From Pyrobaculum sp. 3827-6 (GTDB taxonomy: Archaea > Thermoproteota > Thermoprotei > Thermoproteales > Thermoproteaceae): 64,000 nucleotides of DNA. Of the stretch, positions 852-64,000 are shown piece by piece; within the stretch, counting starts at the first letter, position 1; each line of letters opens with the position of its first letter. The DNA is taken from positions 1,200,547-1,264,546 of the forward strand of contig NZ_JAOTQN010000001.1 in the NCBI RefSeq assembly GCF_025641885.1, given 5' to 3'. A program made the translations under genes and the position numbers. The notes below the pieces were generated by a model. That model did not search any database. It saw only the letters and a program-made list of their open reading frames with translations, and had not been told where the DNA came from.

Positions 852-958
852 ATGTATCCTGTACTTTTCGTTTAATAAATTTTATTACACAACTTCAAGT
901 AATATATTGAATCAAACTTAAATATAATATTCTTATTACTGAATATCAAAATATATAA

Positions 959-1453
959 TTAATACAGAAAGTTGATCTTAAGAGAATCTTTAACCCAATT
1001 CAAGTATTCATATAGATTTTCGGTGAGTATCATATATGCGATTTGATCCCAATGGAACATGGCATCTCCAGGCGGGATGGTGACTATAAGCGCAGGTGCT
1101 ACAAGACCCTTTGTACACTCAATGGGCATCAACGCAAATATAAAATTAGTTTTGAAGCCTCGCCAAGGGATATCTTCCTTAATTATTGATATGCTAGATT
1201 TGTCAAAAATTTCATTGCAAAATTTATCTACTACTAGTTTCTTATCAAGAATAAAAACTAGTAGATATTCATTATTTTCCAACTTTGAAATGATATATAA
1301 CTGATATTGGGGAACATAGAAAAACTCTTCCTCTTTAGTTTGATATGAAAGAAAAAAATTAAGAGTTTTTGGCTGGATGATTTTAAATTGCATCTCTAAA
1401 GCCTTTGAATATATACTCGCCACGGGCTCTATAAGTGAGATAGGTGCGCGCAA
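959..1453 (-). CDS. Hypothetical protein, AT-rich, immediately downstream of dsrB
   Basis: 164-aa ORF in a strongly AT-rich stretch (880-1400) that contrasts with the GC-rich flanks. It overlaps the dsrB 3' end, so the true start may be the internal Met near 1393. I recognised no family. Confidence 0.35.
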   Translation of the reverse strand: MRAPISLIEPVASIYSKALEMQFKIIQPKTLNFFLSYQTKEEEFFYVPQYQLYIISKLENNEYLLVFILDKKLVVDKFCNEIFDKSSISIIKEDIPWRGFKTNFIFALMPIECTKGLVAPALIVTIPPGDAMFHWDQIAYMILTENLYEYLNWVKDSLKINFLY

Positions 1454-2516
1454 TGTCTGGCATCCACATGTACTCTGCTATAGGCCTCGGCACGCCTACT
1501 AAGTCCAGGAATTTAGCCCATCCAATCCTATCGATGAAGTCGGCTAGTCTCTCGCCTGGTTTGGCGTTCTGGCGCCATACCTCTACTACCTGCTTGACGA
1601 CAGCCACAATTTCCTCGTACCGAGGTGGGTTCGCCGGTAGCCATGGTATTAAGTTACGTGCCAGTCTTGGGCCGCCGCCTGAATTTGACATTCTACCCCC
1701 TACTAGGATAGCTACGCCAACATCTTTAGGATCGTAGTCAAATGCATCACAATTATCTTTACATCTGCCGCAGTTAATACACTTCTCACCAACCAATACT
1801 AATTTAATCTGGCCGTCTTGTCTCCTCAGAGTCAACGCACCCGTGGGACACACCTGCACTAGGAATATCTGCGACTCGGGTATTTTGGCGAGCGCCTTAG
1901 GCGGCGGCATACATAATGGTAAGACTTCTTCTCTTATTTTGGGCGGGGCTCCCCACATCCCCACAATTGCGATATCGGTGGCGGTGCCGCCGGCACACCC
2001 AGAGGGACAGCCGGAGATGAATATCCTTAGCTTGGCTGGCAACGGTATCTCGCCTGTAAAGTAAGGCTTTAAGGCGTCTCCAAGCGCTTTCCCTATACTC
2101 GGAGCGTCTACTACTCCTATCTGACATGTTAGAAATGCGGTACATGTATTTATGCCCCACATGGCACCCCTCCAGCCGCCTACTGGGAATCCCATTTTCT
2201 CCACCTCTTCCTTTATCTTTTGGGCCTTTTCTAAACTATCAGTGATGAATTCAACGTTGCCAGCTACTGTTATTCTTAATGCGCCCACGCCATATTTATC
2301 TGCAATATCTGCAAATTTTTCTAACGTATCTGCGCTTACCCTCGCATTTGGGGGCAACGCCACTTTTATTGTAAATACTCTTTCGCCCGTTTCTGAGATA
2401 TGTTCAATAATTCCGGACCCGTGGAACTTCCTCTCTTTCCATTTGCCGTAATTACGTTTTATTATCTCAGGAAGGAATCTCTCGACTTCAGTTGGGTATT
2501 TCAGCTCTATGCTCAT
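1383..2516 (-). CDS. dsrB: Dissimilatory sulfite reductase beta subunit
   Basis: 377 aa with a ferredoxin-like 4Fe-4S insert (CINCGRCKDNCDAF) and sulfite/nitrite reductase siroheme-binding Cys motifs (GCPSGCAG). It is the second gene of an AB pair and overlaps dsrA by 4 nt. Confidence 0.88.
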   Translation of the reverse strand: MSIELKYPTEVERFLPEIIKRNYGKWKERKFHGSGIIEHISETGERVFTIKVALPPNARVSADTLEKFADIADKYGVGALRITVAGNVEFITDSLEKAQKIKEEVEKMGFPVGGWRGAMWGINTCTAFLTCQIGVVDAPSIGKALGDALKPYFTGEIPLPAKLRIFISGCPSGCAGGTATDIAIVGMWGAPPKIREEVLPLCMPPPKALAKIPESQIFLVQVCPTGALTLRRQDGQIKLVLVGEKCINCGRCKDNCDAFDYDPKDVGVAILVGGRMSNSGGGPRLARNLIPWLPANPPRYEEIVAVVKQVVEVWRQNAKPGERLADFIDRIGWAKFLDLVGVPRPIAEYMWMPDIARTYLTYRARGEYIFKGFRDAI

Positions 2517-3751
2517 ACCCTCACCAACTGCTTAACTTTTTCGGCAAATTCTGCAAATTTCTTACGCTCTTCCTCTGGCAATACTCTATAGGGCACATTA
2601 TCTGGCAGTTTCTCGACGTATTTCGGCGTATCTTCTAAGCTAATACCAGCTTTTTCTATAAATCTGTATAATCCCTCCATGAGAATATAATCGCCAAGTC
2701 TATACTTTGCCTGCGCCTCCTCGTCCCACGGCTTAATTACTTTAAATGTGACATCTATTGCCTTATCAACCTCATCAGGTTTTAAGAATCCAATAAACCA
2801 GCCGAGTTTGGGGCCGTAACGCCCCTTACTACCCCCACCGACTACTACTGCTACTCTCTTTTCTTTACCTGGCTTAATAGCGGGGAACGCCGCCCTAATG
2901 CAGTGCATCGATTTTTTACACCGTGCCCCATCTATCTTGAGCTCTTTCTTAGCAGGATCCCAGCTGATTGCGCCGCTTGGACAGTTCGCCACAAGTTTCT
3001 CTGGATCTACCTCGCCGTTCTCAATCTTCTTCCTTAATAGTTCTTGATCTACCTCGGGCGCGCCTTTCCAAACACCTATAAATCCGATATCTCCTCTATT
3101 TGCCCTTGCGCAATCCATTGGACAGCCTGACAACTTTATCTTGAACTTATACGGATAGCCTGGAACGGCGGTGGCGTCATGTACACGCTTGTCTTTTCTA
3201 AACGCAACTAACCAGTTTAGTGTATCATAAAGTGCGAATTCGCACAGAGCAGGACCTACACATGCGTTTAATTCTCTAATCGCGTCGCCGCTCCCGCCGA
3301 CGTCTGTCCCTATCTCTCTGAGTGTATCAATCATTTTATCTCCCAAGTCTTTGCTCTTTACATTGATCACCATTGCACCAGTTTGCCCCACAGCTTCAAT
3401 TAAACCGACGCCATATTCCCTGGATATTTGGATAATCTTTCTAAGGTAGTCTGTAGGTAGAAATCTCCCGGGCGTGTGGAATACTCTGAAGTGAACCTCC
3501 TCCCCACCTCCTGGGACCCAGTCTCTGGCGATTCTGGCCAAGACGCCTGTAAGACGTTTTGCCTTAACGGCACTGGGGCCCCAAGGGCTTTTCCTAGCCA
3601 CTAGACCCACACCGTATACCCGCACCGGATAACCGGTCTTTTTCAACTCGCTTACATGGCTAGGCCATGGCCCTTTTTCAAGTTCAGCCAGGTATTCGTC
3701 GGCTTTTTCTAGAAGCTTTTCTGGCGGTGGTAATCCGGGTGGAGCTGCCAT
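2513..3751 (-). CDS. dsrA: Dissimilatory sulfite reductase alpha subunit
   Basis: 412 aa with Cys clusters typical of DsrA (SGCPMDCARANRGDIGFIGVW, ANCPSGA, CKKSMHC). It is upstream of and translationally coupled to dsrB. Confidence 0.88.
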   Translation of the reverse strand: MAAPPGLPPPEKLLEKADEYLAELEKGPWPSHVSELKKTGYPVRVYGVGLVARKSPWGPSAVKAKRLTGVLARIARDWVPGGGEEVHFRVFHTPGRFLPTDYLRKIIQISREYGVGLIEAVGQTGAMVINVKSKDLGDKMIDTLREIGTDVGGSGDAIRELNACVGPALCEFALYDTLNWLVAFRKDKRVHDATAVPGYPYKFKIKLSGCPMDCARANRGDIGFIGVWKGAPEVDQELLRKKIENGEVDPEKLVANCPSGAISWDPAKKELKIDGARCKKSMHCIRAAFPAIKPGKEKRVAVVVGGGSKGRYGPKLGWFIGFLKPDEVDKAIDVTFKVIKPWDEEAQAKYRLGDYILMEGLYRFIEKAGISLEDTPKYVEKLPDNVPYRVLPEEERKKFAEFAEKVKQLVRV

Positions 3752-3838
3752 GAGAAATCTTAACTAAATTCCTAAAAAGACTTGTTACTCGTAATTAAGA
3801 AATAGATCTGTAGAGAATAGTAGAAAGGTTGTGATAAC

Positions 3839-4333
3839 CTATATTTCTTTAGCGGATTTGCCCAGCGCCTTTAGTAAAACCAGTGTTATGTAAAGCCCCC
3901 TCCTTACCTCGGCATCATTTAGAAGAGATATAAGTGTACGTATAGATATTTTCTTGTCTTCCTTAGCCTCAACAAGTGCTTTTTCTAACTCTGGATCTGC
4001 TAATGCCCTGCCGATTACCTCTACTAGCGATGTTCTTGTCAAACCGTCAATCAAAAGGCCGAGGGGTCTTATTACATTTTTGGCAAGTTCATCTACCATT
4101 CTGTCAGTAACTACATCATGTAACATAGCAATAGTGGCGAGAAGCTCTACTACGTGATCCAATACGCCGGATCTCACTAGGTATTCAGCGGCTCCCCATA
4201 GTTGTTGCTCGACAACCTCTCTAGGCACTGTAGGCATGGATTTTCCTGAGGGCGTAGCTACTATTCTGTCTACGGCAAGCCACTTGCGCCGGATCTCCTC
4301 GGACAGATACTCTTTCACCTGCGTTTCTGTCAT
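3839..4333 (-). CDS. DUF1641-like protein coupled to the flavoprotein oxidoreductase
   Basis: ATGA start/stop overlap with the upstream flavoprotein gene at 4330-4333. The 165-aa helical protein resembles DUF1641 proteins, which commonly follow SQR/NDH-II-type flavoproteins. This is a recalled association, not a search result. Confidence 0.45.
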   Translation of the reverse strand: MTETQVKEYLSEEIRRKWLAVDRIVATPSGKSMPTVPREVVEQQLWGAAEYLVRSGVLDHVVELLATIAMLHDVVTDRMVDELAKNVIRPLGLLIDGLTRTSLVEVIGRALADPELEKALVEAKEDKKISIRTLISLLNDAEVRRGLYITLVLLKALGKSAKEI

Positions 4334-5520
4334 ATTAACCCTCTGAGTGTAAGCGGTATAGAGAGGTAGTACATCCTTATTAAATACCAGCCCCATCTAT
4401 TGCCTATAAACGGCCTTGCGTTTTTTACATATGTCCACCAGGGCATCCACGCCGCGCCTTTCTCAGCTGGGGAATACACAGCACCTAGATAGGGACAGAT
4501 AGTCTCGCCGTAAAAGATCCACTTATCGCCGTGGCCCTTAATTTCGCTAGCAATGTTGTGAGAAACCACAATTGCCTCATAGTGCGCCACCGAGCCGGCT
4601 CTGGTAACGCCAATGTCGGCGACATCGCCTACGATAAACACATCGTCGTAATGTTCTTTCCCCTTTCTGTACGTCAGATTATATCTATCGCCCGGTACTA
4701 AATTAAAGGGATTCCCTATGCCGGAGTCCCCTATGACTCGAGGCCCTCGATGTGGAGGTACTGTTATAAGTAAGTCGTATTTTATCTTTTCACCTTTAGT
4801 AGATATCAATACCTTGTTTTTAGCATCTACTCGCTCTGGCTCAAATTCGTAGATGTACTCCATGCCTCGGATTTTTAACATTTCTTCCAGTACTTTATTG
4901 ACCTCAGGCTGGGCGTGTAGGTGGTCTTGCGTAGTCGCCACAATTATCTTGTACCTCCCCTTCAGCATCCTTACATTGCTTAGATATGAATCTATCAAAA
5001 GAGGCGCCTTGCCGGAGGTTATTGGACATTTCATTGATACGTCAAGCATTGCTAAAAGCTGTACTATTGTGCCGCCTGTGAATTCTTGTAGTAGTTTTCT
5101 TACTTCCTTAGCGCCTTCGAAGGTATAGTAAGTATGATAATCGTCAAGGAGACCCGGCACCAGCGACGGCTCGTAGGAACACCCAAGAGCTATGACCAAA
5201 TAATCGTATGTATAGCTCTTCCCCTTTGCCGTAGTAATTGTCCGGTTTTTTAAATCTATTTTGACTACATTACCTTCATCTCCTAAAAAGGCTTTAATTT
5301 TAGGATCAAGTATTTTAGTTTTATCATATATAAGATCTTCCTCATCATATGCCCCAGCTATATACGGCACAAATGCTGCTTCAAAATAATAAGTTTTTGA
5401 TTTGTCGAAAATCATTAACTCAACCTCCCCTTTTACAATTTCTCTGCGCAAATCTCTGGCTAAGCTATTTGCAACTATCATTCCACCAGTCCCTGCCCCA
5501 AGGACAATAATTTTTTTCAT
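4330..5520 (-). CDS. FAD-dependent pyridine nucleotide-disulfide oxidoreductase (sulfide:quinone oxidoreductase / NDH-II-like)
   Basis: N-terminal Rossmann fold MKKIIVLGAGTGGMIVANSLA and a second dinucleotide motif (VATTQD..) in a 396-aa protein. It lies between dsrC and dsrAB. Confidence 0.8.
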   Translation of the reverse strand: MKKIIVLGAGTGGMIVANSLARDLRREIVKGEVELMIFDKSKTYYFEAAFVPYIAGAYDEEDLIYDKTKILDPKIKAFLGDEGNVVKIDLKNRTITTAKGKSYTYDYLVIALGCSYEPSLVPGLLDDYHTYYTFEGAKEVRKLLQEFTGGTIVQLLAMLDVSMKCPITSGKAPLLIDSYLSNVRMLKGRYKIIVATTQDHLHAQPEVNKVLEEMLKIRGMEYIYEFEPERVDAKNKVLISTKGEKIKYDLLITVPPHRGPRVIGDSGIGNPFNLVPGDRYNLTYRKGKEHYDDVFIVGDVADIGVTRAGSVAHYEAIVVSHNIASEIKGHGDKWIFYGETICPYLGAVYSPAEKGAAWMPWWTYVKNARPFIGNRWGWYLIRMYYLSIPLTLRGLI

Positions 5521-5542
5521 AGATTACAAAAAAAGCGCAGTT

Positions 5543-5878
5543 TTACACACAACCTGTTGGCTTAGGCGCTCCAGCTATTTTACAAGCGCCGTTTGCAGGG
5601 CCTGAGGGAAAGAGCTGGTATATTCTTTCAAGCGTGTTTCCTGTTTCTTTTAGCAACATCTTTATAGGCGGACATACGCCGTAGGTTTCCCAGTACTCTC
5701 TGAGATACTTAACTACTTTCCAATGATCATCTGTCATTTGTTGTATTCCCTCTAACTCACGCGCTAGCCATTCTGCTACTTTCTCATTCCACGCCTCTGG
5801 ATTTTGCATAAAACACTCCTCGTCTAATATTACAACAACATCATCAACCTTGTATTCCCCCGGGCATTTCACTGGCAT
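5543..5878 (-). CDS. dsrC: DsrC/TusE-family sulfur-relay protein
   Basis: 111 aa. The C-terminal arm ...NGACKIAGAPKPTGCV carries two conserved Cys, the penultimate CV being characteristic of DsrC. It lies 22 nt upstream of the flavoprotein gene. Confidence 0.85.
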   Translation of the reverse strand: MPVKCPGEYKVDDVVVILDEECFMQNPEAWNEKVAEWLARELEGIQQMTDDHWKVVKYLREYWETYGVCPPIKMLLKETGNTLERIYQLFPSGPANGACKIAGAPKPTGCV

Positions 5879-5964
5879 GCCACCTCTACTTAAGAGTAGT
5901 ATAAAAGGATCATTACTCTATTTTGAGTAATTATGTAACATGAAAGAAAACTACGATCCTTCCG

Positions 5965-6627
5965 CTATGTATGTTTACATTTACGAATAATTATCAACAA
6001 AGGTCTTACTCCTTGGAATTTATCTAATTCATCTACATTAACTATTTTAATACAACCTCCCCCTATTGTAATTGCATAACATATATATATTTCAACATTT
6101 TTCTCACAATTTTGTATTACAGCTGTCTTTACCATATCTAGTCTTTCGCCCATCATAAAAATTACGGCGGTGTCTGCTGCAACCTTGTTAAGGATTTCTG
6201 AGTTAAAATGAGGAAAAGAGAAGAGAGCTATATGTCTTAGCGATACGCCGTCTGTAAGCTCTATTTTGTACAACGCTGCAGCTGCCGTAAAGGCACTGAT
6301 GCCCGGCACTATTTGGCAGGACACTCCCCTATTTTCGGCTTTTTTACATATCTGTACTCCTCTGCCAAAGATAGAGGGATCTCCATTTTTCAGAATCACA
6401 ACATTCCGATCCCTAGCCTCTTCTATTAACTGTTCCACTATCGTATCATGTTCTTCTTTTCTGTGTCCAATTTTTACCCTCTTGGCGCTTGGAGCGTAAA
6501 GCGTAACGATTTCTTCAGGCACGAGATCGCCGTAGGCTACGACGTCTGCTTGACGCAGTAACTCCACTGCCTTAACCGTTAGCAGGCTCGGGTCGCCGGG
6601 GCCCGCCCCCACTACGTAGATCGGCAT
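5965..6627 (-). CDS. cobA: Uroporphyrinogen-III C-methyltransferase (SUMT, precorrin-2 synthesis for siroheme)
   Basis: Tetrapyrrole methylase motifs VVGAGPGDPSLLTVKAVELLRQADVV and GDPSIFGRG. The true start is probably the internal MPIYVVGAG (6627). The track ORF extends spuriously into dsrN. Confidence 0.85.
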   Translation of the reverse strand: MPIYVVGAGPGDPSLLTVKAVELLRQADVVAYGDLVPEEIVTLYAPSAKRVKIGHRKEEHDTIVEQLIEEARDRNVVILKNGDPSIFGRGVQICKKAENRGVSCQIVPGISAFTAAAALYKIELTDGVSLRHIALFSFPHFNSEILNKVAADTAVIFMMGERLDMVKTAVIQNCEKNVEIYICYAITIGGGCIKIVNVDELDKFQGVRPLLIIIRKCKHT

Positions 6628-7952
6628 AACGCCGCCAAGACGTTGTATGTATAGGGGTGGATGTGTAGGTACTGGGCGTGCATGTTGTGCTTCACAACGC
6701 CGTCCCACCCCCCTCCCACCCCCACGCCCCTCTCCAGCTTAATGACGAGATTCGGCTTCTCCCTAAAGATAATCTTAGAGTAGTGGAACTCGTGGCCCAC
6801 CAGCCTCGTCCCCCGGGGCGCCACTGGGGTATCCCCCACCACCTGCCCCCAGACGTATCCCTTGCCCACCGGCCTGTCCAGCATCACCGTGACGGCGTCT
6901 ATGGCGCCCACCATCTCGTACTCGCTACGATCGATAACTATAGAGGAGGTCATGTACATAAGGCCTCCGCACTCGGCGTACAGCCTCCCCCCCGACTCCA
7001 CATAGCGCAGGAGGGCTTTTCTAAAGGGCTTGTTCCGCTCCAGCTCCTCAGCCAGCACTTCGGGGAATCCGCCACCCACCACGACGAGATCCACCGGCGG
7101 CAGCGCTTGATCCCTCAGCGAATTTATGAAGACAGGCTCCCCCACCGACGCCGCGGCCTCGAGGAGCTCTGGGTAGTAGAAGGTGAAGGCGCGGTCCATT
7201 ATAATACCCAACCTGCAGTTGCCGCCAGCGGGGGGGTCAGCCTCGGGTTCTTCGTCCAGCTCCCCAGCCCTCTTGGCGATAGACAGAATCCCGTCGAGGT
7301 CGAGGTAGGGCACCACGTAGCTCTCCAACACGTCTAAGACGCCGCCTGCGTCGCCTCTCTCGCCGGTGGGGACTAGACCTAGGTGCCGGTAGGCGAAGGC
7401 CTCGGCCACTTTCTTCGACTTTGGCACAACGCCCACAATCTCCACGCCCTCCTCGGGGAGGGCCTTGACAAGCTTCTCCGCCTGCCTGGGGGTGACGTTT
7501 GTCAATATTACGCCAGCCACGTCCACGCCGGGGTCAAAAGCCTTGAGGCCTCTGACGACGGCGCGTAGCGTCCTGTTTACCCTCTCGCCGTTTAGCACCA
7601 CCACCACCGGGGCCTTGAGCAACTTCGCCACCTGCGCCGTGGAGCCCAACTCGGAGACGCCGTCTACCGAGTCGTAGAGGCCGAGCACGCCCTCCACCAC
7701 GGCCAAGTCGGCGCCAGCGGCGTACTTCACAAACCTCCTCCTCACCCCATCCTCGCCCATCAACACCACGTCGAGATTTCTGCCAGCCACCCCGGCGGCA
7801 AGGCTATGGTAGGAGGGGTCTATGTAGTCGGGCCCCACCTTGAAGGGCGCCACCCTCAGCCCTCTGCGGGCGAGGCCGTACAAAATGCCAAGGGTTACAA
7901 TGGTCTTGCCGGACATCCCACGGGGGGCTGATATAACAATCCTCGGAATCAC
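6612..7952 (-). CDS. dsrN: Cobyrinic acid a,c-diamide synthase homolog, probable siroheme amidase
   Basis: 446-aa CbiA/CobB-family protein with an N-terminal ATPase P-loop (SAPRGMSGKT) and a C-terminal glutamine amidotransferase domain. Its position inside the dsr/siroheme cluster matches the DsrN role known from dsr loci. Confidence 0.7.
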   Translation of the reverse strand: MIPRIVISAPRGMSGKTIVTLGILYGLARRGLRVAPFKVGPDYIDPSYHSLAAGVAGRNLDVVLMGEDGVRRRFVKYAAGADLAVVEGVLGLYDSVDGVSELGSTAQVAKLLKAPVVVVLNGERVNRTLRAVVRGLKAFDPGVDVAGVILTNVTPRQAEKLVKALPEEGVEIVGVVPKSKKVAEAFAYRHLGLVPTGERGDAGGVLDVLESYVVPYLDLDGILSIAKRAGELDEEPEADPPAGGNCRLGIIMDRAFTFYYPELLEAAASVGEPVFINSLRDQALPPVDLVVVGGGFPEVLAEELERNKPFRKALLRYVESGGRLYAECGGLMYMTSSIVIDRSEYEMVGAIDAVTVMLDRPVGKGYVWGQVVGDTPVAPRGTRLVGHEFHYSKIIFREKPNLVIKLERGVGVGGGWDGVVKHNMHAQYLHIHPYTYNVLAALCRST

Positions 7953-8001
7953 GGGCCAACGGGCGCATCATTTAAAAATCTTTATTACTAATAATAGGCT
8001 A

Positions 8002-8592
8002 CTACCTCCTCCTAGCCCTCACCCTCAGAATTCCGGGCGCCGTCACTATGTCCACTATTCCGTAGCCCAGATCCTCCAGCATGCATCTAACCGCCGACGC
8101 CGTCACCTCCACGCTCTCTATGCTGTAGCCTACGCCGATTGTGTCTATTGTGAACTCCCCGCCCTCGGCCTTTATCTCGAACCTCCTCGCCGGCACGACG
8201 TTTGCGAGGTACCTGGCGAAATATGCCGCGTTCTCTAGCGTGCCAAACACTGCCTTTACATATCCCGCGATCATCCTTCCGGCTTCGCACCAAATCGTCG
8301 TCGCTGTCTCTTTATTCATCTTGAACATCTCCACAACCATCTTGTCCAGGAGGCGGCCGGGGAGGGGGACAGTCTCAAGCTCAGTCATCACCTTGTAGAA
8401 GGTGGCTATGTCCCTGATCTGCTGCACCGAGAAGCCTTCCCTGATCAGCGCAAGGCCGACGCTGAGTATCTGGTTAGCCAGGGCGAACTGGGTGTAGCCC
8501 ATGGACTCCGCGGTCTTCGCCAAATCTTCAGCCACGTCCCTAGCCACTGCGATGTTTACTCTGTCCTTCCTGACACTCATAGAATCTCCCAA
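8002..8592 (-). CDS. Hypothetical protein upstream of dsrN
   Basis: Clean 196-aa ORF with codon usage like its neighbours. I recognised no family. It is a possible first gene of the dsr operon. Confidence 0.5.
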   Translation of the reverse strand: MGDSMSVRKDRVNIAVARDVAEDLAKTAESMGYTQFALANQILSVGLALIREGFSVQQIRDIATFYKVMTELETVPLPGRLLDKMVVEMFKMNKETATTIWCEAGRMIAGYVKAVFGTLENAAYFARYLANVVPARRFEIKAEGGEFTIDTIGVGYSIESVEVTASAVRCMLEDLGYGIVDIVTAPGILRVRARRR

Positions 8593-9278
8593 ATTTCAGA
8601 TATTTATAGTTAAAAGACGGGAAATAACCAGAGATAGTGCACACCTTTGGACTGGCTCAACAAGTTAATTCGCGATCTGTGTATAATTGTCTAAGACACT
8701 CCAAATCCGTCTTGTAAGCATTCTACACCATCTCCAATGGAGCCCAGAGAGCTCACAAACCCTACATGCCGCCTATGGAACCGACGCCCCCGCATACGGC
8801 GTAGATTCAAACTTGCCGTGAAGACCTGTGTCGAATTCCTCGTAGATCCACAACCCACCCTTCTCCTGCCGGAATTCGACGCATGCATTAACGCCGGGGA
8901 CGAGACGCCCCTTACACGCGGCTCATAAACCATTAGCCCGCGCTTAGCCTCGCGTTTCTGCACCCTAGACACCACATCAATACCTCTAGGTTAACCTAAG
9001 CCACAGACCGCTCCAGCTCCCCTCTCAGCTAAAGAAATAAATCTAGATATCAAGAAACGCAGTCGACTGGCGTAGAGGCCGCCGTACACACTTAGATGAC
9101 AGGTGCCTGCGTCGGGCCGGTGTTGCGTATATTCGCCCTTGAGAAGATCGCGGACCTAGATAAGCCTGCAAATGACTCTACTTGTCAGACCCAACGTCAT
9201 CGACTACGTGGAGAACAAGGGATGGGGAAACTAGTAGCGCACCACTGGGCGCTTTGTAATCAGAAAGAACCTCAGGAA

Positions 9279-9588
9279 GATGCCCGGCACCGCGGCAGTG
9301 CTAGGCGTCTTTAGCCCTAGTTGTGGAAGGCGCGCGGGGGCATTGGCGCACGTCAAGGGTGAGGCCTAAACTTCAGATACACTGGCAGAGCTGAGGACAA
9401 GGCACTCGGACTCGTGGGCTACGTCAAGAATCTTCCGGAGAGCAGGTTGGGAGTTGTGGCCTATGGCAACGAGGAGCGGGATCGTAAATTCGTGGAGAAG
9501 CTCTTAGGAGGGCTTGAGAAATGTAGAGTCACCGCGCCCTACCATGAACCTGCCGGGAGATACGACGATTTCTACGTTCAGTAGTGGT
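9279..9588 (+). pseudogene. Acylphosphatase, frameshifted
   Basis: Manual translation gives ...ALAHVKGEA* in one frame and GLNFRYTGRAEDKALGLVGYVKNLPESRLGVVAYGNEERDRKFVEKLLGGLEKCRVTAPYHEPAGRYDDFYVQ* in another. This reads as VxGxVQGVxFR ... GxVxNxxDGxVE, the acylphosphatase fold, with a small indel near 9343. Confidence 0.4.
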
Positions 9589-9740
9589 GCAGGCGGAAAG
9601 GGGGTGAGGAAAAAGGTTGTTTAATTATGTTTACTTTTTCTTTTCAGATTCTTTTTTCTTTTCTTCGGCCTTCTTTGGAGGTGCGCACATAGATGGCCAC
9701 CAAGTTCTGCAATATTTCTTTCTAAGCATTAATATTGATC

Positions 9741-10088
9741 CTATTTGCCGTGGACGCGGCTGGGGCTAAGCTTTGATACACATTCACTTATTAGATCTGC
9801 ACATTTTACGCATAGATCCCCTTTGGGATCTGTCAATCGCTTTTCTAAACAGTGGGCGCATTTGACTGCTTCAATAGAGGGGTTGCCCACGGCCTTTGCC
9901 AAGAGCGAGGGGAGGGCGTGGAGAGCCGGCGTGGGGGCATATGGGTGGTTGCCCAGCACCCCCATGAGAAGGGCCCTCACGGCGACGTAGGCGTTGTAGC
10001 AAGCCCATGAGTCGTCGCCCCGCTCGAGGCCTCTAATCGCCTCTGTCATGTGTCTATAGTGGCGCTCTATCCACTTGGGGTGGATCAC
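9741..10088 (-). CDS. HEPN-like helical protein with C-terminal CxxC..CxxC zinc ribbon
   Basis: 115 aa. The N-terminal helical region (EAIRGLERGDDSWACYNAYVAVRALLMGVLG) is HEPN-like. The C-terminus CAHCLEKRLTDPKGDLCVKCAD has four Cys. Confidence 0.4.
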   Translation of the reverse strand: MIHPKWIERHYRHMTEAIRGLERGDDSWACYNAYVAVRALLMGVLGNHPYAPTPALHALPSLLAKAVGNPSIEAVKCAHCLEKRLTDPKGDLCVKCADLISECVSKLSPSRVHGK

Positions 10089-10112
10089 GGGGGAAGATCT
10101 ATATAGCTACTT

Positions 10113-10598
10113 TTGTTTTTCTCCGTGAGGCTCGACATGTGCAAAACGTCTTCGATTCTTGACTACCGGGCTGTGATGTTTCTAGAGGGGGGCTACGTCA
10201 GAGTCACCGCCGCAAACGACAAGTCGCTTGTGGCAAAGGTGACGAAGGGGCCTTGTCTGGGGGTTTCTAGGGAGGTGGCCTTCCTGCTGTATCCCCACTA
10301 TGGCTGGGGCAAGATCCCCGTCGAGGCGGAGAGCGCCATGGAGGCTGTGGAGCTTGTTAAGGCTACTAGAGTTGTGACGCGGGTGCCCTTCGGCATAGGG
10401 GAGGCCGTGGTGCGGAGACGATTGGAGGGCTTCCCCGTGTGTGAAGGCTCGATGGCGCTTGAATACCTGGAGTATGTAGAGTTCGGCGAGGTGGTGCACG
10501 TGGAGCCTGCCCGGTTCTCGGTACTGGCGCCCGACACCACGCTGAGGCTCGTGGAGTTGCCTGTGGAGGACTCCGAGGTCGTCTTTATGCGTAGGTAG
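10113..10598 (+). CDS. Hypothetical protein upstream of sat
   Basis: 161-aa ORF. The start is uncertain: an internal MFLEGG is possible. No family recognised. Confidence 0.4.
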   Translation: MFFSVRLDMCKTSSILDYRAVMFLEGGYVRVTAANDKSLVAKVTKGPCLGVSREVAFLLYPHYGWGKIPVEAESAMEAVELVKATRVVTRVPFGIGEAVVRRRLEGFPVCEGSMALEYLEYVEFGEVVHVEPARFSVLAPDTTLRLVELPVEDSEVVFMRR

Positions 10599-10652
10599 GT
10601 TATCTTCTAACGGTTGTTAGTAATGTTTTAGATTTTTTCACATAGAGACGCC

Positions 10653-12020
10653 ATGCCTGCGCCACTTGAACCACACGGCGGGCGGCTGGTTTACAATGTG
10701 ATAGAAGATAGAGACAAGGCGGAGAGCGCCGTGAAGGGCCTCGCCAGATTGGAGATAGAGCCGACCCTCGGCCTGGACGGTGCGCCGATCCGCAACCCCT
10801 ACCGCGAGATTATGTCCATCGCATACGGCTTCTTCAGCCCCGTGGAGGGCTTCATGACGAGGAACGAGGTGGAGAATATTTTAAAGGAGAGGCGCCTACT
10901 GAGCGGCTGGCTCTTCCCATTCCCGCTGGTGTTCGACGTGGATGAGGAGAAGTTCAAGTCGCTGGGGGTTAAAGAGGGCGACACCGTGTTGCTCACCCTC
11001 AAGGGCAAGCCGTTTGCCACGTTGAAAATCGAAGAGGTGTGGAAGCTCCCGGACCGCAAGGAGTTCGCCGACGCCGTCTTCGGAACCCCTGAGCGCAACA
11101 AGGAGGTGGTGAAGAAGAGGTTTGATGAAAAACACCCCGGCTGGCTGATATACCGATCCATGAAGCCCATCGCTCTGGCGGGGAAGGTCACAGTGGTGAA
11201 CCCGCCGAGGTTTAAAGATCCCTACAGCAGGTTCTGGATGCCGCCGCACGTCTCGCGGGAGTACGTGGCTAAGAAGGGGTGGAAGATCGTGGTTGCCCAC
11301 CAGACGAGAAACGTGCCGCACATAGGCCACGAAATGCTTATGAAAATGGCCATGTTCGTCGCCGGTTGCGACAGGCCGGGGGACGCGGTGCTCGTAAACG
11401 CAATTATAGGGGCCAAGAGGCCGGGGGACTACGTCGACGAGGCCATCCTGGAGGGCCACGAGGCTCTGAACAAATTCGGCTACTTCCACCCAGACCGCCA
11501 CGTGGTTACCATGACTCTGTGGGATATGCGCTACGGGAACCCGCTGGAGTCGCTACTGCACGGGGTCATTAGGCAGAACCTCGGCGCGACGCACCACATG
11601 TTTGGCCGTGACCACGCCGCCACGGGCGACTACTACGACCCCTACGCCACGCAGTACCTCTGGACGCGGGGACTCCCCAGCTACGGCATCAACGAGCCGC
11701 CTCACGTGACGGACAAGGGGCTGAAGATACGCCCGGTGAACCTCGGCGAATTCGCCTACTGCCCCAAGTGCGGCGAGTATACATACCTAGGCATGTCTTA
11801 CGGCGACTACAAGGAGGTGGCCCTCTGCGGCCACACGCCGGAGAGGATATCCGGCTCCTTCCTCCGCGGCGTCATCATAGAGGGCCTCAGGCCGCCGAAG
11901 GTGGTCATGAGGCCGGAGGTGTACGACGTAATTGTAAAGTGGTGGAGGGTGTACGGCTACCCCTACGTCACAGATAGGTACCTAAAAATTAAAGAACAGG
12001 AGCTGGAGGTGGAGCTATGA
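10653..12020 (+). CDS. sat: Sulfate adenylyltransferase (ATP sulfurylase)
   Basis: 455 aa with the ATP-sulfurylase active-site motifs VAHQTRNVPHIGHE (QTRN + HxxH) and GRDHAATG. The N-terminal domain is PUA-like. Confidence 0.9.
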   Translation: MPAPLEPHGGRLVYNVIEDRDKAESAVKGLARLEIEPTLGLDGAPIRNPYREIMSIAYGFFSPVEGFMTRNEVENILKERRLLSGWLFPFPLVFDVDEEKFKSLGVKEGDTVLLTLKGKPFATLKIEEVWKLPDRKEFADAVFGTPERNKEVVKKRFDEKHPGWLIYRSMKPIALAGKVTVVNPPRFKDPYSRFWMPPHVSREYVAKKGWKIVVAHQTRNVPHIGHEMLMKMAMFVAGCDRPGDAVLVNAIIGAKRPGDYVDEAILEGHEALNKFGYFHPDRHVVTMTLWDMRYGNPLESLLHGVIRQNLGATHHMFGRDHAATGDYYDPYATQYLWTRGLPSYGINEPPHVTDKGLKIRPVNLGEFAYCPKCGEYTYLGMSYGDYKEVALCGHTPERISGSFLRGVIIEGLRPPKVVMRPEVYDVIVKWWRVYGYPYVTDRYLKIKEQELEVEL

Positions 12021-12996: not shown

Positions 12997-13720
12997 CTAC
13001 CCCCGTAACCTCAAGATATAGTTGTATGCCGAGTAGGCCGCTACGGCCCCCTGCGCCGCGGCTATCTGTATCTGTTTAAACCCTCTGGGCATCGCCGTGG
13101 TGCAGTCCCCGGCCGCATAGATGCCGGGGATATTCGTCTCCATGGCCTCATTTACTTTAACATAGCCGTCTTCGGTGAGTTCTAGGCCGACGCGTCTGAA
13201 AAAATCCACGGCGTCTCCGCGCCTATTTCGATGAAGATGCCGTCAACTGGCAGTTTTTCTAACTCACCGCTGTCTACTCTCTTAATTACCGCCTCTCTAA
13301 GCATTTTATCGCCTCTGAGTTCAACCACCACGCGGTTCCACAAGATCTCTATCTTCCCGCTTTTAGAGAGGAGCTTTTGGTAATGCGGCCTCGCCCTCAG
13401 CCTATCCCTTAGTAGATCTTAGAGGCGTATTCCGCAAGCAACAAGGCGGCCTGCGCCGCCGAGACCCCTTCTCCCACAACGGCGACTGTTTTGCCCCTAA
13501 AGAGAGGGGCGTCGCAAGGAGCGCAGTAGCTCACCCCCCTCGCGTTAAACTCCTCCTCCCCCGGAACGCCGAGCTTCCTCCTCCGCTCCCCCACGGCAAT
13601 TATCACCGTGACAGCTTCCAACATCTCGCCGCTATCCATTGTCACAACAAATCTATTGTCTATCTGCCGGATATTCTCAACTTTTCCCAGTATAATAGGG
13701 GCGCACTACAGCTAATCAGA
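12997..13720 (-). pseudogene. Thioredoxin reductase (trxB-like), multiply frameshifted and N-terminally truncated
   Basis: Three consecutive frame segments read as TrxR. The first is ...[33 protein letters not shown]...[40 protein letters not shown], which includes the CxxC redox site. The second is [69 protein letters not shown]. The third is DFFRRVGLELTEDGYVKVNEAMETNIPGIYAAGDCTT...AYSAYNYIL. The FAD-binding GxGxxG N-terminus was not found. Confidence 0.6.
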
Positions 13721-38889: not shown

Positions 38890-39570
38890 ATGTATATAGA
38901 CTTGACGATGGAGCTGGGCCCCGACACGCCTGTCTTCCTCGGCTACCCCAAGCCGGCTTTCATCCAGTGGTCCAAGATAGACCTCCACGGCTACTACTCC
39001 CGCGTGATGTACACGCCAGAGCACTCAGCCACACACGTCGACTCCCCCGCCCACTTCGTGCCGGGGGCGAGGACAGTGGACCAGATACCCCCCGAGAAGT
39101 TCATCGGCGCCTTCGTCGCACTCGACTTCTCCGACCTGCCCCCCAGAGGCCAGATAACGCTGAGGGCATTCGAGGCCAGACTCCCCCGCGGCGCCGACCT
39201 CGGCCCCGGCGCCGTGGTCCTCCTCCGGACGGGGTACGACGCCTACGCCGGGACAGACCGCTGGCTGGAGCACCCCGACATATCGCCAGAGCTGGCTGAG
39301 CACCTAGCCAAGCTAGGCATAAACGCCGTGGGGACAGACGCCCCCTCCCCAGACCACGCCCCCTTCGAAATACACAAAATACTCCTCGCGAGGGAGGTTT
39401 TGATATACGAAAACCTCACAAACCTCGCCGCCGTCGTCGGCAAGAGAGGCCGCTTCTACGGCCTACCCCTAGTGCTATCCCCACACCCCATCTTCATTTT
39501 TCCTGACTCGACGTCGGATGTTTTTCCTGATTCAGGAAGATTGTCTGATTTTAACTCAGGTAAAATGTAG
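38890..39570 (+). CDS. Cyclase-family protein (arylformamidase/kynurenine formamidase-like); C-terminus fused into IS hairpin sequence
   Basis: PF04199-like motifs (HSATHVDSPAHF, LLRTGYD, GTDAPSPD). The last ~28 codons (PHPIFIFPDSTSDVFPDSGRLSDFNSGKM) are encoded by the IS terminal hairpin repeat. Confidence 0.7.
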   Translation: MYIDLTMELGPDTPVFLGYPKPAFIQWSKIDLHGYYSRVMYTPEHSATHVDSPAHFVPGARTVDQIPPEKFIGAFVALDFSDLPPRGQITLRAFEARLPRGADLGPGAVVLLRTGYDAYAGTDRWLEHPDISPELAEHLAKLGINAVGTDAPSPDHAPFEIHKILLAREVLIYENLTNLAAVVGKRGRFYGLPLVLSPHPIFIFPDSTSDVFPDSGRLSDFNSGKM

Positions 39571-40716
39571 ATGGGAGGGTTGAAAGTCGTGTTGGGAAAA
39601 AAGGGGGATTATTTCCCGGTACCTCTTCTGTGCCCAATGTATCGGCACATCGTCACGGTTGGCCTCAAAGCCGCACTGACATTTCACCCTTCTGTTCGGA
39701 AGCTCCTCCATCTTTGCTCCGCATCTGGGGCAAATGGTGGAGTACAGCCTCAGCTCTGCGTAGGGCACCCCGTACCACTCGGCAAGCTCCCTCAGCCTCT
39801 TCACAAGCCTCCCCACATTGAGATACTTCTTGACGTTTGACTTTACCCTATCGCCTTTCTTCAGCCCCCGTATAGATTCGTCTATGGGCTCGTCCACTAC
39901 GACGGCGGCTTTGTACTGCATAGCGAGCTTCACGATCTTCTTTGCCGCCTCTATTGTCCATTGCCTCCACAGCCGCCAGAGGCGGCTCTTGGCCTCTGTT
40001 GCCTTTTTGCAGTAGGCGCCGCCTTTTGTGGTACATAGGGAGTCCAGCCTGGCGATCTCCCTCTCCAAGCGGCCGATGCGGCCGAGATCAGGCCTCAAGA
40101 TGCCCTTCTGCAACACCTTATCTTCCTCTATGGTGGCTATCACTATGCCGTTGTGGAGGGCGTTGACGTCGACTACGAGAAGCCTCTTGGGCTGGTATGG
40201 CGTAATTTCTCTGTGGAACACAAGCACCACGTTGAAAGTGGCGATGTTGCTGTCCCGCCGCCTGCCTACCCACGCCAGGGCGAATTTCAGCTGGGCGCTC
40301 TCCTTCACCCTTTCTTCAATCCACTTGATCTCAGACTTCCTCAGCTTAATCACGATGGTGTTGCCTCTCTCGCCGCTCCACTTCCTGATTCTAACCTCCC
40401 TCTCTGACAGATCTACAAGGACGCCGCGGCTGTTGTCGCCCGCGTTTTTATCAAGCCTCAGCTCTGCGTTGAAAGGAAGCGGCACCCTCCACACGCCATT
40501 CTTAAGCCCATTCGCGGGCAAGAGCTTCAACGCATGTTTCAACTCAGTGGCGAAGTACTTCAGTGGATTCTGCTGTGGGAGCGGTGCTTTGAATCCGCTC
40601 TTGTACCACTCCGTTGCCCACTCCTGGAACTTCTGTTGCACCTCTAGGAATTTGGTCAGCTGATGCGGCGGTATTTCTTCCACTCTCCTCTTTATTACCA
40701 GCGTTCGGTAGCCCAT
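39556..40716 (-). CDS. tnpB: TnpB (IS605 OrfB) RNA-guided nuclease-like transposon protein
   Basis: 386 aa with a RuvC-like split nuclease domain and a C-terminal zinc finger CPRCG...CQCG, which is typical TnpB architecture. Confidence 0.85.
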   Translation of the reverse strand: MGYRTLVIKRRVEEIPPHQLTKFLEVQQKFQEWATEWYKSGFKAPLPQQNPLKYFATELKHALKLLPANGLKNGVWRVPLPFNAELRLDKNAGDNSRGVLVDLSEREVRIRKWSGERGNTIVIKLRKSEIKWIEERVKESAQLKFALAWVGRRRDSNIATFNVVLVFHREITPYQPKRLLVVDVNALHNGIVIATIEEDKVLQKGILRPDLGRIGRLEREIARLDSLCTTKGGAYCKKATEAKSRLWRLWRQWTIEAAKKIVKLAMQYKAAVVVDEPIDESIRGLKKGDRVKSNVKKYLNVGRLVKRLRELAEWYGVPYAELRLYSTICPRCGAKMEELPNRRVKCQCGFEANRDDVPIHWAQKRYREIIPLFSQHDFQPSHLHFT

Positions 40717-40768
40717 GTCCCGCTATGCACACCTCCACACGTGGAAGTGACGCCCCACCGTTGTTACC

Positions 40769-41248
40769 TCAGCCAGGGGGCGGCTTGTCTGCATGCACAG
40801 CGGCTAAGTGGTTTTCCGAGCAACCGCCGCATAGCGCCTCTGCCTGAAGCGTAGAGGTGCTGGCTGGTGAAGCGCCTACAAACTTGGCGTATTTCGCCAT
40901 GGTCACCGGCTCCTCCACCGGCTTGTCCTGGCTCCTGGCCCTGGGGGGGAGGGGAGGCTTCCTCGGCTCTGCGGAGGGCCTCCTTCTGTTGAGCGGGGGC
41001 TTGAAGACCGCGTGGAGCCACGCCTCCCACATCTCGGCGAGACGCCTCCTCCGCGTGTAGGCCAAGATGATGAAGACGTCGGCCCTAAGCCCCCTCCTCG
41101 CCGCCGAGGAGCGCCCCCGGAGGTGCATGTAGACCCGGTCGTAGTAGCCGCGGCGCTTCCCCACCCCCACATACGCCACACGCCCACCCGCCAGCACCAA
41201 GTAGGCGTAGTGGACAGCCCCCACGAATACATCGGAATTTAAAGCCAA
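40769..41248 (-). CDS. Possible GIY-YIG nuclease-domain protein in the tnpA position of the IS (tentative)
   Basis: The N-terminal ~90 aa fit GIY-YIG spacing: YAY-x9-YVGVG-x~12-R..H (VHYAYLVLAGGRVAYVGVGKRRGYYDRVYMH), then E (AEMWEAW). The C-terminal half is low-complexity. No HuH/Y1 transposase motifs. The region is GC-rich with many alternative ORFs. Confidence 0.3.
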   Translation of the reverse strand: MALNSDVFVGAVHYAYLVLAGGRVAYVGVGKRRGYYDRVYMHLRGRSSAARRGLRADVFIILAYTRRRRLAEMWEAWLHAVFKPPLNRRRPSAEPRKPPLPPRARSQDKPVEEPVTMAKYAKFVGASPASTSTLQAEALCGGCSENHLAAVHADKPPPG

Positions 41249-41399
41249 CTACGGCTTTCCACTCCCCCATATACGTTTTTCCTGACTTGACATCGGACGT
41301 TCTGCCTGATTCAGGAAAAACGTCTGACGTTGAGTCAGGAAGAATGTAGATGGAGTGTTGCGCCGCCTCGGCATAATTTTGAACTGTCCGCACGCCATA

Positions 41400-41760
41400 A
41401 CAGTTGAAAGAGAGGGATGCCGAAGCCAGTTCCAAATCTAAAGATTTGGAATTGGTGAAGACGGAATGGGCGAAGCTTGACGTACGCCGATCGTTAATTC
41501 ATAAATTGGGGATGTGTTTATGCGCACATGGGCAAGCTGGCGCCCGCCCCGCCTCCCGCGAGGGCACCGGGAGGCGCCGTTGCGTCCAATACGCTCCGCC
41601 GAAGGGGCGGCGTTATTCCTCCGGGCGGCCCCGCCCCGGAAGTCCGCAAGGACGATCCGGGGCCCCGTGCCCCCCGGGACGCCCGGAGAGTAGAAAGGGG
41701 GTATACCCCTCAAGCTAACACAGGGAAGCGGCGCACCCGTAAGGGCAATCGTGGAGATAA
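41400..41760. repeat. GC-rich repeat element copy A (candidate structured ncRNA or mobile-element terminus), homologous to 63560..63840
   Basis: Shared blocks with copy B: AGTTGAAAGA..GCCAGTTCCAAATCTAA (hairpin), CGTT.ATTCAT.AAAT.GGGGA, CGCTCCGCCGAAGGGG.GGCGTTA..CTCC.GGCGGCCCCGCCC, GAGAGTAGAAA.GGGG. Some stems differ in sequence but keep their pairing, e.g. CCCGG...CCGGG versus GGCCGAG...CTCGGGCC. Confidence 0.5.
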
Positions 41761-41809
41761 CGCCGGCATAGCCACCGGGTGATTTAAATACAGGCCACCA
41801 TCCGCTCCC

Positions 41810-54571: not shown

Positions 54572-55231
54572 GGACACACACAGACAAATCCAGCCCCCCG
54601 GTCCCTCGGCCTCTTGGTCAACAGACAACTAGCCCATCCTCCATCTGCTTCTCTGGATTTAGGACCTGTCCGTCGGTCACCACATGGGGCCTGGGCAATC
54701 GCCGAACCCGCCTGCGTGTCCGCGCTGAGCGGGTAGATTCGTCAGTTAGCGAACGCACCGGACCCCACGGAGGCGTACACGACCCCTATAGCGGCGGAAG
54801 CGGTCCTGAAGACTGCGAGAGGGGAATGCGAGGCAACGCTAATTGGCTCGTTACTCCCGTCTGGCGCCACTTTGACCTTGCGGCCTCTCGGAATCCCTAC
54901 TCCCTTTCAACTACGGTTCCCAAAGAGCCGCGCCAGCACCTACACGGCTATGTCTACACACGACGCCTCAACCCCATCCAGTAGCCCTCCACCCCCCGCG
55001 GTGTGGTTTTTTCATAGACGGCGTTTGCGAACGCATTGCGTTGATTACGGCTATGCCATTCGACATCCCCCACAGCCTCTTCTTACCCCCTCGGGGACTA
55101 CAGAACGATCCACGCTAGTCTCATCCCACTACTGCGTGTAAGCGTGGTTATTCACAAAGCTGTTTAATTTTCGCAAGCTGTCGGGATAAATTTTATTCCC
55201 CATAACAAGCTTTAAAGGGTGTGGAGTATAT

Positions 55232-60667: not shown

Positions 60668-61089
60668 CAGATTCCTATATAATAACATTCCATAAAATGA
60701 GAACAATAATGGTAAGCCACAACACGAGCCGCGTTTCAGAACGCTCCGACCGAGCCAAGCACAAAAAAGGAGAAAAAACCACAGCCTAGCCCGAAGTGCT
60801 CCGATACCCATGAGAAAATTACGTACCGTCAACTCCTTGCACCACCACCCTCCCACGGCCAGCGGATCAGACCCGAGGCTTACGCAACTAACTTGTCTCT
60901 AAAAATCCCCAGCGCGAAGCCGCCCCCTCCAACGCCCCCCGGGCGGCCCCTCCCCTTGGCGCCTTCGGCGCCTCGGGGCCCCGTGACCCCCGAGACGCCC
61001 GGAGAGCAGAAGGGGACATTCTGCTCAGCGCAGAGCCGCGTTGCCAGAGGGCCGGGGCTTAGTGAAAAATTTATAAATATTTGTGGAGA

Positions 61090-62842: not shown

Positions 62843-63286
62843 GTGTGGGTAAATCTTCGACTCCTACTTGTTAGCTGTATGTTTAAATATGGGGCTTCTC
62901 ATATGTACGTGTCCGGGGAGCTGGGGGTTTTGGCGCAGGAGGCGCTTAGGGTGGCTGTGGAGTCTGTCCTCGGCAAGTTGAGGGAGGGTAAGAAGCTGTC
63001 CACTGAAGACATCTTCCTCCTCTACTTGGCGACAATAGGAAAGGAGCTTGACGAGATTAGGAGGGAGATCGCCGAGGTAAACCAGAGAATAGACCAGACA
63101 AACAGACGGATTGACACGATAGCTCAAGAGTTGGGTAGGCGTATTGACGAGACGAATAAGCGTATTGACGCGATAGCCCAGGAGCTGGGTAGGAGGATAG
63201 ATGAGACGAATAAGAGGATTGATGGGGTGTATGCGTTGCTTCTTGACATACAGAAGCTGTTGGTGGAGATTGCCAGGAAGAGCTGA
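62843..63286 (+). CDS. Coiled-coil protein with internal 18-aa tandem repeat
   Basis: 147 aa. The nucleotide tandem duplication (54-nt period) at ~63119-63226 encodes IAQELGRRIDETNKRID twice, and a third degenerate repeat (RIDQTNRRIDT) lies upstream. Confidence 0.5.
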   Translation: MWVNLRLLLVSCMFKYGASHMYVSGELGVLAQEALRVAVESVLGKLREGKKLSTEDIFLLYLATIGKELDEIRREIAEVNQRIDQTNRRIDTIAQELGRRIDETNKRIDAIAQELGRRIDETNKRIDGVYALLLDIQKLLVEIARKS

Positions 63287-63559
63287 GGCGCGGTTGCTCT
63301 TATCCTCTGTAAGAAGGGGACAAACCCAGTTCTTTAAGTCGGAGAGGTGGTCAGCAACTTTCTCTCCTACGCGTATGCGCCCAAGCTGACATTCCGCCGC
63401 CGGGCGCCCCTACAGCTGTTGATCTCGGTAGCCCGACTCACAGCGCGGCTTTCGATATTCTACTTGAAGTTAAAATCGGACATTCCCTGAATCAGGTATA
63501 ACATCTAATGCTCCGCATGGCGTCGCCAAACGCGTAATCTAGAACTGCCTACCCACTAG

Positions 63560-63840
63560 GGGAGTTGAAAGAATGAGGCGCCGGGGCCAGTTCCAAATCT
63601 AACTTAGAACTGGTTAAGGCGAGTTCGGCGCATGCCTGTCGTTTATTCATTAAATAGGGGGACGTGTTCATAGGCATACGGACAGATATGTACCTGCCGC
63701 CCCCCGGGGGGCTTCGGGAGGCGATAACGCCCCCGAACCGCTCCGCCGAAGGGGTGGCGTTAACCCTCCAGGCGGCCCCGCCCGGCCGAGAGATAGCTCG
63801 GGCCCCTGCCCCTGAGACGCTTTGAGAGTAGAAATGGGGC
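63560..63840. repeat. GC-rich repeat element copy B (homolog of 41400..41760), preceded by a solo IS-end-like hairpin at 63465-63500
   Basis: Block-wise homology to copy A (see that entry). About 70 nt upstream, AAAATCGGACATTCCCTGAATCAGG resembles the IS subterminal hairpin CATCGGACGTTCTGCCTGATTCAGG at 41290-41315. Confidence 0.5.
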
Positions 63841-64000
63841 ATCTGGTAGCTTCAGCGGGGTCTTAAACGCCAAGTGCTCCTCAAACAGCCAGCTGGTGAT
63901 GGGGTGCGCCCCCCAGGCGCCCAGCGCCGAGGCGGCTAGGTCGGGGTCGTTGGTGACCCAGCTGAGCGCCACGTAGCTCTTGTTGACGTCTATGCCGAGC

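Follow-up and report, generated by a model that had tools for sequence, protein, structure and literature searches.

A probable non-coding right-end module and omega-RNA scaffold of a TnpB insertion sequence of the Thermoproteaceae

A repeated element present in the 64-kb stretch of Pyrobaculum DNA analyzed here, termed the window, is probably the non-coding right-end module of a TnpB insertion sequence (IS) of the Thermoproteaceae, in which it would provide the omega-RNA scaffold. This reading is based on the linkage of the element to tnpB, a boundary shared by its copies, its structure, and its strand bias. We infer that the module is transcribed and possesses an internal promoter, that it is bound by TnpB and has a guide function, and that its present arrangement has a recombination history. 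The canonical element would consist, in this order, of a palindrome, ORF159, tnpB, a second palindrome that extends across the stop codon of tnpB, and a module of ~345 nt that ends in GAGAGYAGAARGGGG(G)YAT. The original prediction had considered a novel structured RNA, possibly associated with an IS. The association with a tnpB element is supported, whereas an independent new class of RNA is not. Most likely, the element belongs to the known class of TnpB omega RNAs, as a member that is specific to this lineage and unusual in parts of its anatomy.

Two copies of the element, A and B, had been described originally as homologous and collinear, with several shared sequence blocks, and the alignments bear this out. 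Their mean column identity was 78% in a MAFFT alignment of positions 41380-41800 with 63540-63960, blastn aligned 41402-41704 with 63563-63842 at 68.5% identity over 305 nt (E 5e-23), and a global alignment gave 73% over 311 nt. The block CGCTCCGCCGAAGGGGYGGCGTTA has two matches in the window against a shuffled expectation of 0.00, and the blocks GCCAGTTCCAAATCTA and GAGAGTAGAAAKGGGG are likewise present, confined to A and B, and far above the shuffled expectation. Copy A is a full right-end module at 41359-41704 on the plus strand (alignments; nhmmer E 8e-92). It begins with a leader (41359-41401), behind which lies a 5' domain that contains the hairpin GCCAGTTCC...GGAATTGGT at 41425-41457. 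An AT-rich box separates this domain from the GC-rich 3' domain, and the last letters of the copy are GAGAGTAGAAAGGGGGTAT at 41704. Copy B, at 63521-63842 on the plus strand (101.6 bits with the covariance model), is a solo module without tnpB; its closing helix is partly eroded, and it belongs to the same subfamily as a copy found in a Thermoproteus metagenome-assembled genome (MAG; locus L033, 78% identity). The number of copies had been underestimated, since the window contains at least four and not just two. Copy C (60902-61019, plus strand; detected by blastn and by the covariance model with 67.3 bits, E 2e-16) is a fragment that comprises only the 3' domain and carries an apical hairpin of its own sequence, GGCGCCTTCGGCGCC. 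Copy D (~13000-12738, minus strand; nhmmer E 5.7e-8) is probably a decayed full-length copy, which scored only 11.3 bits with the covariance model, folds poorly, and lacks a palindrome. Copy C is located inside the supposed island at 41.8-63.5 kb and copy D 28 kb outside it.

The motif AGTWGAAAG, with which the module starts, was found seven times in the window (at 3819, 32450, 41402, 41689, 54904, 59649, and 63563), as compared to 0.9 occurrences expected. The module begins with GGGAGTTGAAAG, a sequence that also makes up the outer arm in the palindromes of the IS. Two further candidates, at 54912 on the minus strand and at 59649, were rejected as copies, since they have only the AGTWGAAAG start in common with the module and do not align to it; small remnants of IS ends may be present at 54904 on the minus strand and at 59649, the latter followed by CTCTTCCAAATCTA.

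Copy A lies beside an IS in which two palindromes bracket tnpB (39556-40716, 386 aa) and ORF159 (40769-41248), both encoded on the minus strand. The palindromic end next to copy A (41245-41358, 114 nt) is self-palindromic and, according to blastn, an inverted repeat with ~80% identity (80.7% over 114 nt) to the other palindromic end at 39483-39595, which extends over the stop codon of tnpB. IS200/IS605 elements characteristically have a subterminal palindrome at either end, and the two found here are ~80% alike; should the module be included in the IS, ~345 nt would separate the right-hand palindrome from the end, an atypical distance for this family. An IS-type palindrome had been reported ahead of each module copy, and one is indeed found at both, complete at copy A and in degenerate form at copy B, where a remnant at 63457-63520 matches the IS end with 82% identity over 51 nt (blastn). 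The gene of a cyclase-family protein (PF04199; 38890-39570, plus strand) enters the IS palindrome with its 3' end, such that its last ~25 codons are IS-derived and the gene was truncated by the insertion.

The TnpB protein of the window matched the Pfam family PF07282 with 32.1 bits (cut-off 26.3). It is a divergent member, since it reached 31 bits with the NCBIfam model guided_TnpB, for which the cut-off is 100, and a PDB sequence search gave no match. D/E/D and CxxC motifs were read by eye, and a protein of Pyrobaculum sp. 3827-6 with 100% identity is named InsQ/TnpB family protein at NCBI. No Y1 (HUH) TnpA was recognized in the IS, the sole other ORF of which, ORF159, was without a match in Pfam, NCBIfam, PHROG, and PDB; a TnpA might act in trans. 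ORFs of the ORF159 type (~150-160 aa, 65-75% identity) are conserved upstream of tnpB in three related loci, namely, L146 (9499-9948), L147 (2804-3286), and L148 (2419-2877). An assignment of ORF159 as a GIY-YIG nuclease was considered on the basis of a motif read by eye in its N-terminal half (YxYL...VAYVGVG...R..H...E...PxN) and was rejected, since profile searches and PDB returned nothing and a single-sequence AlphaFold model was unusable (pLDDT 43). No further remnants of tnpB or ORF159 were found elsewhere in the window. A relation to CRISPR through the motif GTTGAAAG was discarded as well, as this motif belongs to the arms of the palindromes and no CRISPR array is present in the window. 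Copy A and tnpB are on opposite strands, with tnpB at the far end of the IS, so that an RNA of copy A could not originate from the tnpB mRNA at this locus.

A clear link between the module and tnpB emerged from the comparison with loci of other genomes. One of these loci is from P. ferrireducens, two are on Pyrobaculum contigs, and one is from a metagenome record, and all encode a TnpB at least 65% identical to that of the window; including the window, five IS loci were covered. Insertion sequences of this type are annotated as paREP12 or TnpB in Pyrobaculum. In four of the four loci that were fetched, the module comes next on the 3' side of tnpB and shares its strand, following a palindrome that overlaps the stop codon. 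It spans 11304-11611 in P. ferrireducens (L146; E 1.6e-65), 4636-4951 in a Pyrobaculum MAG (L147; E 3e-86), and 4201-4497 in a JGI metagenome contig (L148; E 1e-61), whereas in L149, where TnpB is 65% identical, only the 3' domain was detected (7033-7145, 78 bits). The 5' half and the hairpin of L149 differ in sequence, and the GC-rich 3' domain with its terminus is kept in the same orientation. The same-strand position 3' of the gene, as seen for omega RNAs, was thus found in L146 to L149 and not for copy A of the window, where the core is inverted. The junction between palindrome and module is identical in copy A, L146, L147, and L148, and the divergence of the module approximately tracks that of TnpB. 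In the left flanks of the window, L146, L147, L148, and L149, next to a left boundary that is uncertain too, no consistent TAM motif was found.

More distant relatives were also inspected. In L151, a Thermoproteus locus with a TnpB of 52% identity, tnpB is followed by a GC-rich stretch of ~350 nt, which gives way to an assembly gap that contains vector sequence; behind the gap lies AAGGGGGCAT, which weakly resembles the module terminus. At 3990-4045 of this scaffold from Yellowstone, in the tnpB 3' region, the cloning-vector polylinker GGATCCTCTAGAGTCGACCTGCAGGC lies beside a run of N and is an assembly artefact in the public record. In L150, with a tnpB of the P. aerophilum type (58%), the 3' region differs and is without the GC-rich domain. 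Three or four small repeated hairpins of the form TTCAAC-N8-GTTGAA(AG) were seen there 3' of tnpB, at 1457-1730, and this region may represent another omega-RNA or end architecture within the same protein family.

The right boundary of the module is sharply defined. Seven independent copies (A/L147, L146, L148, L149, B, C, and D) end in ...GAGAGYAGAARGGGG(G)YAT, and immediately past GGGG(G)YAT their right flanks are unrelated. This order, with a conserved scaffold up to the right boundary and a locus-specific flank behind it, would be the anatomy expected of a TnpB omega RNA or reRNA. At copy A, the candidate guide segment would be 41705-41724 on the plus strand, which begins where the similarity of the seven copies stops. 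The tnpB stop codon is overlapped by the palindrome and the conserved module begins more than 110 nt downstream; palindrome and module amount to ~450 nt, which exceeds the length of the TnpB omega RNAs described.

The most conserved part of the module is its 3' domain, located at 41586-41705 (plus strand) in copy A, with 142.9 bits in the covariance model R1 and a fold z-score of -4.2. This domain consists of a small stem-loop, a 9-bp closing helix (CUCCGGGCG/CGCCCGGAG) that bears a variable apical hairpin and a C-rich internal loop, and a purine-rich single-stranded tail. R1 describes the 3' domain with 14 base pairs and recovers A, L147, L146, L148, B, L149, C, and L033. In the alignment of these eight sequences, which was fitted to the model, 93.8% of the cells are paired, as compared to 45-55% in slid controls, four pairs are changed on both sides, and several G-U cells appear when the alignment is read on the tnpB-sense strand. 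A conserved structure on the sense strand, as is typical of omega RNAs, is thus present in these few sequences and in an alignment fitted to the model. Six different versions of the apical hairpin were distinguished, all of them self-complementary; its sequence differs between A and B with self-complementarity kept, in agreement with the original observation that hairpins are replaced by other self-complementary sequences between the copies. Compared to shuffled sequences, the IS-attached copies have fold z-scores of -3.2 to -4.2, whereas those of the solo copies B, C, and D range from -0.4 (copy B) to -1.2. On account of these weak folds, the solo copies look like decaying remnants and not like maintained genes.

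Between the two domains lies the AT-rich box GTTAATTCATAAATT (41494-41506, plus strand), which is conserved in A, L146, L147, L148, and B. L149, which is without the 5' domain, has an equivalent box, AAAAATCAAAAATACTGG, ahead of the GC-rich domain. The box GTTAATTCATAAATT is a possible candidate for an archaeal TATA/BRE element that would drive the synthesis of an RNA of ~180 nt from near 41527.

These data can be combined into a mechanism. The module, or its GC-rich 3' 180 nt, would be transcribed on the tnpB-sense strand, and the resulting RNA would act as the omega/reRNA scaffold to which TnpB binds. The transcript would extend ~16-20 nt into the flank, and this flank segment would form the guide. 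Loaded with it, TnpB would cut the vacated site, by which the transposon would be retained or homed.

Several known systems are similar in part. The RNA of ISDra2 is ~150 nt long and derives from the tnpB 3' end and the right end, with its last ~16 nt coming from the flank (PMC8612924). In common with this TnpB reRNA, the module is structured and non-coding, lies on the 3' side of tnpB and on the same strand, and extends to the right end; in both cases the end of the conserved scaffold coincides with that of the element, locus-specific flank comes after it, and the partner, predicted in the present case, is a TnpB-type protein with a zinc-ribbon TNB domain. In contrast to ISDra2, a palindrome of 110-130 nt, which is also found at the left end, separates tnpB and module, the module is ~345 nt instead of ~150 nt long and may have its own promoter, the element contains no TnpA, and no TAM was found. 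Another example is RAGATH-18, which is described in PMC11061315 as an orphan structured RNA motif from comparative genomics that sits downstream of tnpB and guides it. The reRNAs derived from RAGATH-18, which belong to IS607 TnpBs, have the same kind of history and genomic linkage as the module, but sequence and structure are unrelated (no Rfam match) and the transposon family is different. For the tnpB of Sulfolobus acidocaldarius (Saci_1941), RNA-seq evidence exists for a processed omega RNA at the 3' end (PMC12817955). This RNA also comes from the 3' end of a crenarchaeal tnpB and is likened to the module by position and not by sequence; unlike the module, it overlaps the gene at its 3' end.

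The history of the element can be addressed at one locus. L147 is the orthologous locus of copy A, and the two module copies are 97.6% identical. From 41333 onward, through the palindrome's right arm and the module and into the beginning of a flippase gene, the window and L147 share ~98% identity; the switch to this level of identity lies within the right arm, near 41333. The IS cores (39483-41358 in the window, 2712-4596 in L147), in contrast, have only 80% identity and run in opposite directions, and the left flanks are not alike either. Relative to the four other loci, the tnpB-ORF159 core of the window is inverted between its palindromic ends. A module and flank with ~98% identity next to an inverted core with 80% identity imply that the module has not simply co-evolved with this core, and the difference between the two loci suggests either recombination within the palindrome, resulting in core replacement, or a chimeric MAG contig.

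Since each palindrome is self-complementary and the two ends are alike, they constitute both direct and inverted repeats, so that inversion as well as deletion of the core is possible. Recombination between the palindromic ends would invert the core, giving rise to the state at copy A, or would delete it, leaving a palindrome and a module as at copy B and in the Thermoproteus locus L033. At L033, a solo module is accompanied by the shortened palindrome remnant GGCGTTTAAAGAAAAACGCC, and the palindrome remnants of B and L033 are at the same relative place. We infer that copy B is a deletion derivative, and copies C and D would be remnants in further decay. With a palindromic end, a right-end module, and no protein gene, B and L033 resemble PATEs and MITE-like derivatives of IS200/IS605. 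Their palindromes are degenerate and their structure is eroded, however, and they look like deletion remnants rather than active non-autonomous elements.

The contrast between the window and L147 could also be explained differently, in that the unit from palindrome to palindrome is the real transposon and the module its preferred target. A preferred IS200/IS605 target was among the initial proposals. The ~345-nt element would then be a separate host or selfish repeat, beside the 5' leader of which the IS inserts, or homes in an RNA-guided manner, in either orientation. Cores of opposite orientation and 80% identity next to modules of ~98% identity at the same locus agree with this explanation, as do the palindromes at both core ends, which resemble the classical left and right ends of IS200/IS605 (PMC8612924), and the module copies without tnpB (B, C, D, and L033). 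On the other hand, the module is present in all five loci with a TnpB of at least 65% identity, and none of them stops at the palindrome alone; across TnpB lineages down to 65%, and weakly down to 52%, the module or its terminus is found at an equivalent position and with unchanged orientation, which holds for L149 with its different hairpin and, by weak similarity, for L151. The divergences of module and TnpB are roughly congruent. Furthermore, neither of the informative solo copies, B and L033, is a pristine copy without a palindrome remnant. Due to the module at the five loci, the terminal domain kept in distant TnpB lineages, and the palindrome remnants of the informative solo copies, a preferred target is less parsimonious than a right-end module and is ranked second, as an unlikely explanation.

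The module could also belong to the IS and act at the level of DNA, as structured single-stranded DNA or as protein sites for the transposase or ORF159, with no guide RNA involved. The ends of IS200/IS605 elements function on one strand, as hairpins of single-stranded DNA (PMC8612924). Hairpins made of DNA tolerate G-T pairs, such that the G-U strand bias is no proof of RNA, and ORF159 is an uncharacterised IS protein. However, known IS200/IS605 ends need one short subterminal hairpin, which the palindromes already provide, whereas the module forms a multi-helix structure of ~300 nt in which the apical loop is hypervariable and the single-stranded tail at the boundary is conserved, which is the appearance of a TnpB scaffold. 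The conserved AT-rich promoter-like box ahead of the GC-rich domain is a further argument against a function in DNA alone, to which we assign a low probability.

Equally doubtful is an arrangement in which nuclease and guide are modular, with the module being expressed from its own archaeal promoter, solo copies loading TnpB in trans, and the core serving as an invertible and exchangeable cassette. It would explain the different, oppositely oriented cores beside an unchanged module at one locus. If true, it would stand as a natural intermediate between omega RNAs that are bound to a transposon and guide loci that are encoded separately.

An independent family of structured ncRNA genes, or boundary repeats of a 22-kb island or composite element, unrelated to the IS in either case, is the least probable explanation, because, although A and B bracket a mosaic region and possess a conserved structure and a promoter-like box, at least four copies exist, both within and beyond the bracket, the identity of A and B of just ~73-78% is not that of att-type duplications, which would be exactly two near-identical flanking copies, the linkage to tnpB and the palindrome is constant across genomes, Rfam contains no match, and the structure of the solo copies is eroded.

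The non-coding nature of the module in the preferred reading, a right-end module with a probable role as omega-RNA scaffold, coincides with the original proposal that neither copy is coding. No reading frame is conserved between A and B, the peptide identity is below the DNA identity, and translation in six frames gave no protein homologue; neither the ORF on the minus strand of copy B nor a six-frame translation in which three copies were concatenated matched anything in a collection of 5.8 billion protein sequences. RNase P (type T) and SRP RNA, which had been dismissed at the outset, were not recovered either, as a scan of the whole window with Rfam at gathering thresholds provided no match to these RNAs (RNase P type T, archaeal SRP RNA), to HEARO, to group I introns, or to others. 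When both copies were searched against Rfam at E values up to 10, only chance-level matches of miRNA type to the hairpins were obtained. A tRNA scan of the window found none, and blastn against plasmid and phage collections gave no match. Scans with exact patterns resulted in zero or chance matches in viral contigs, in 106 loci in JGI metagenomes that were all due to chance according to blastn filtering, and in one true match in the GTDB representative genomes, which is the Thermoproteus MAG locus L033.

If confirmed, the module would define the omega-RNA scaffold and the right-end boundary for a TnpB lineage of hyperthermophilic archaea for which there is no Rfam model. It would help to annotate Pyrobaculum and Thermoproteus genomes, in which this region is now blank or covered by spurious ORFs, and would aid the reconstitution of a very thermostable RNA-guided nuclease. 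The local repeats, inversions, and deletions would moreover be explained without a genomic island.

Some additional features were noted in the window. A cluster of the dissimilatory sulfite reductase type (two NIR_SIR proteins, DsrC, and ATP sulfurylase) lies within positions 1-12020 and bears no relation to the element. A trxB-like gene (thioredoxin-reductase-like, Pyr_redox_2) is split into two short ORFs (12997-13209 and 13409-13645, minus strand) and is likely a pseudogene; copy D begins at the stop codon of one fragment of it. A coiled-coil ORF at 62843-63286, immediately upstream of copy B, contains a tandem repeat (63085-63222) of 2.6 copies and a period of 54 nt. In the Logan short-read assembly SRR21876913, which encodes proteins identical to those of the window, contig L038 starts at 41692, the 3' end of the module, and this assembly break is consistent with a unit that is repeated in the genome.
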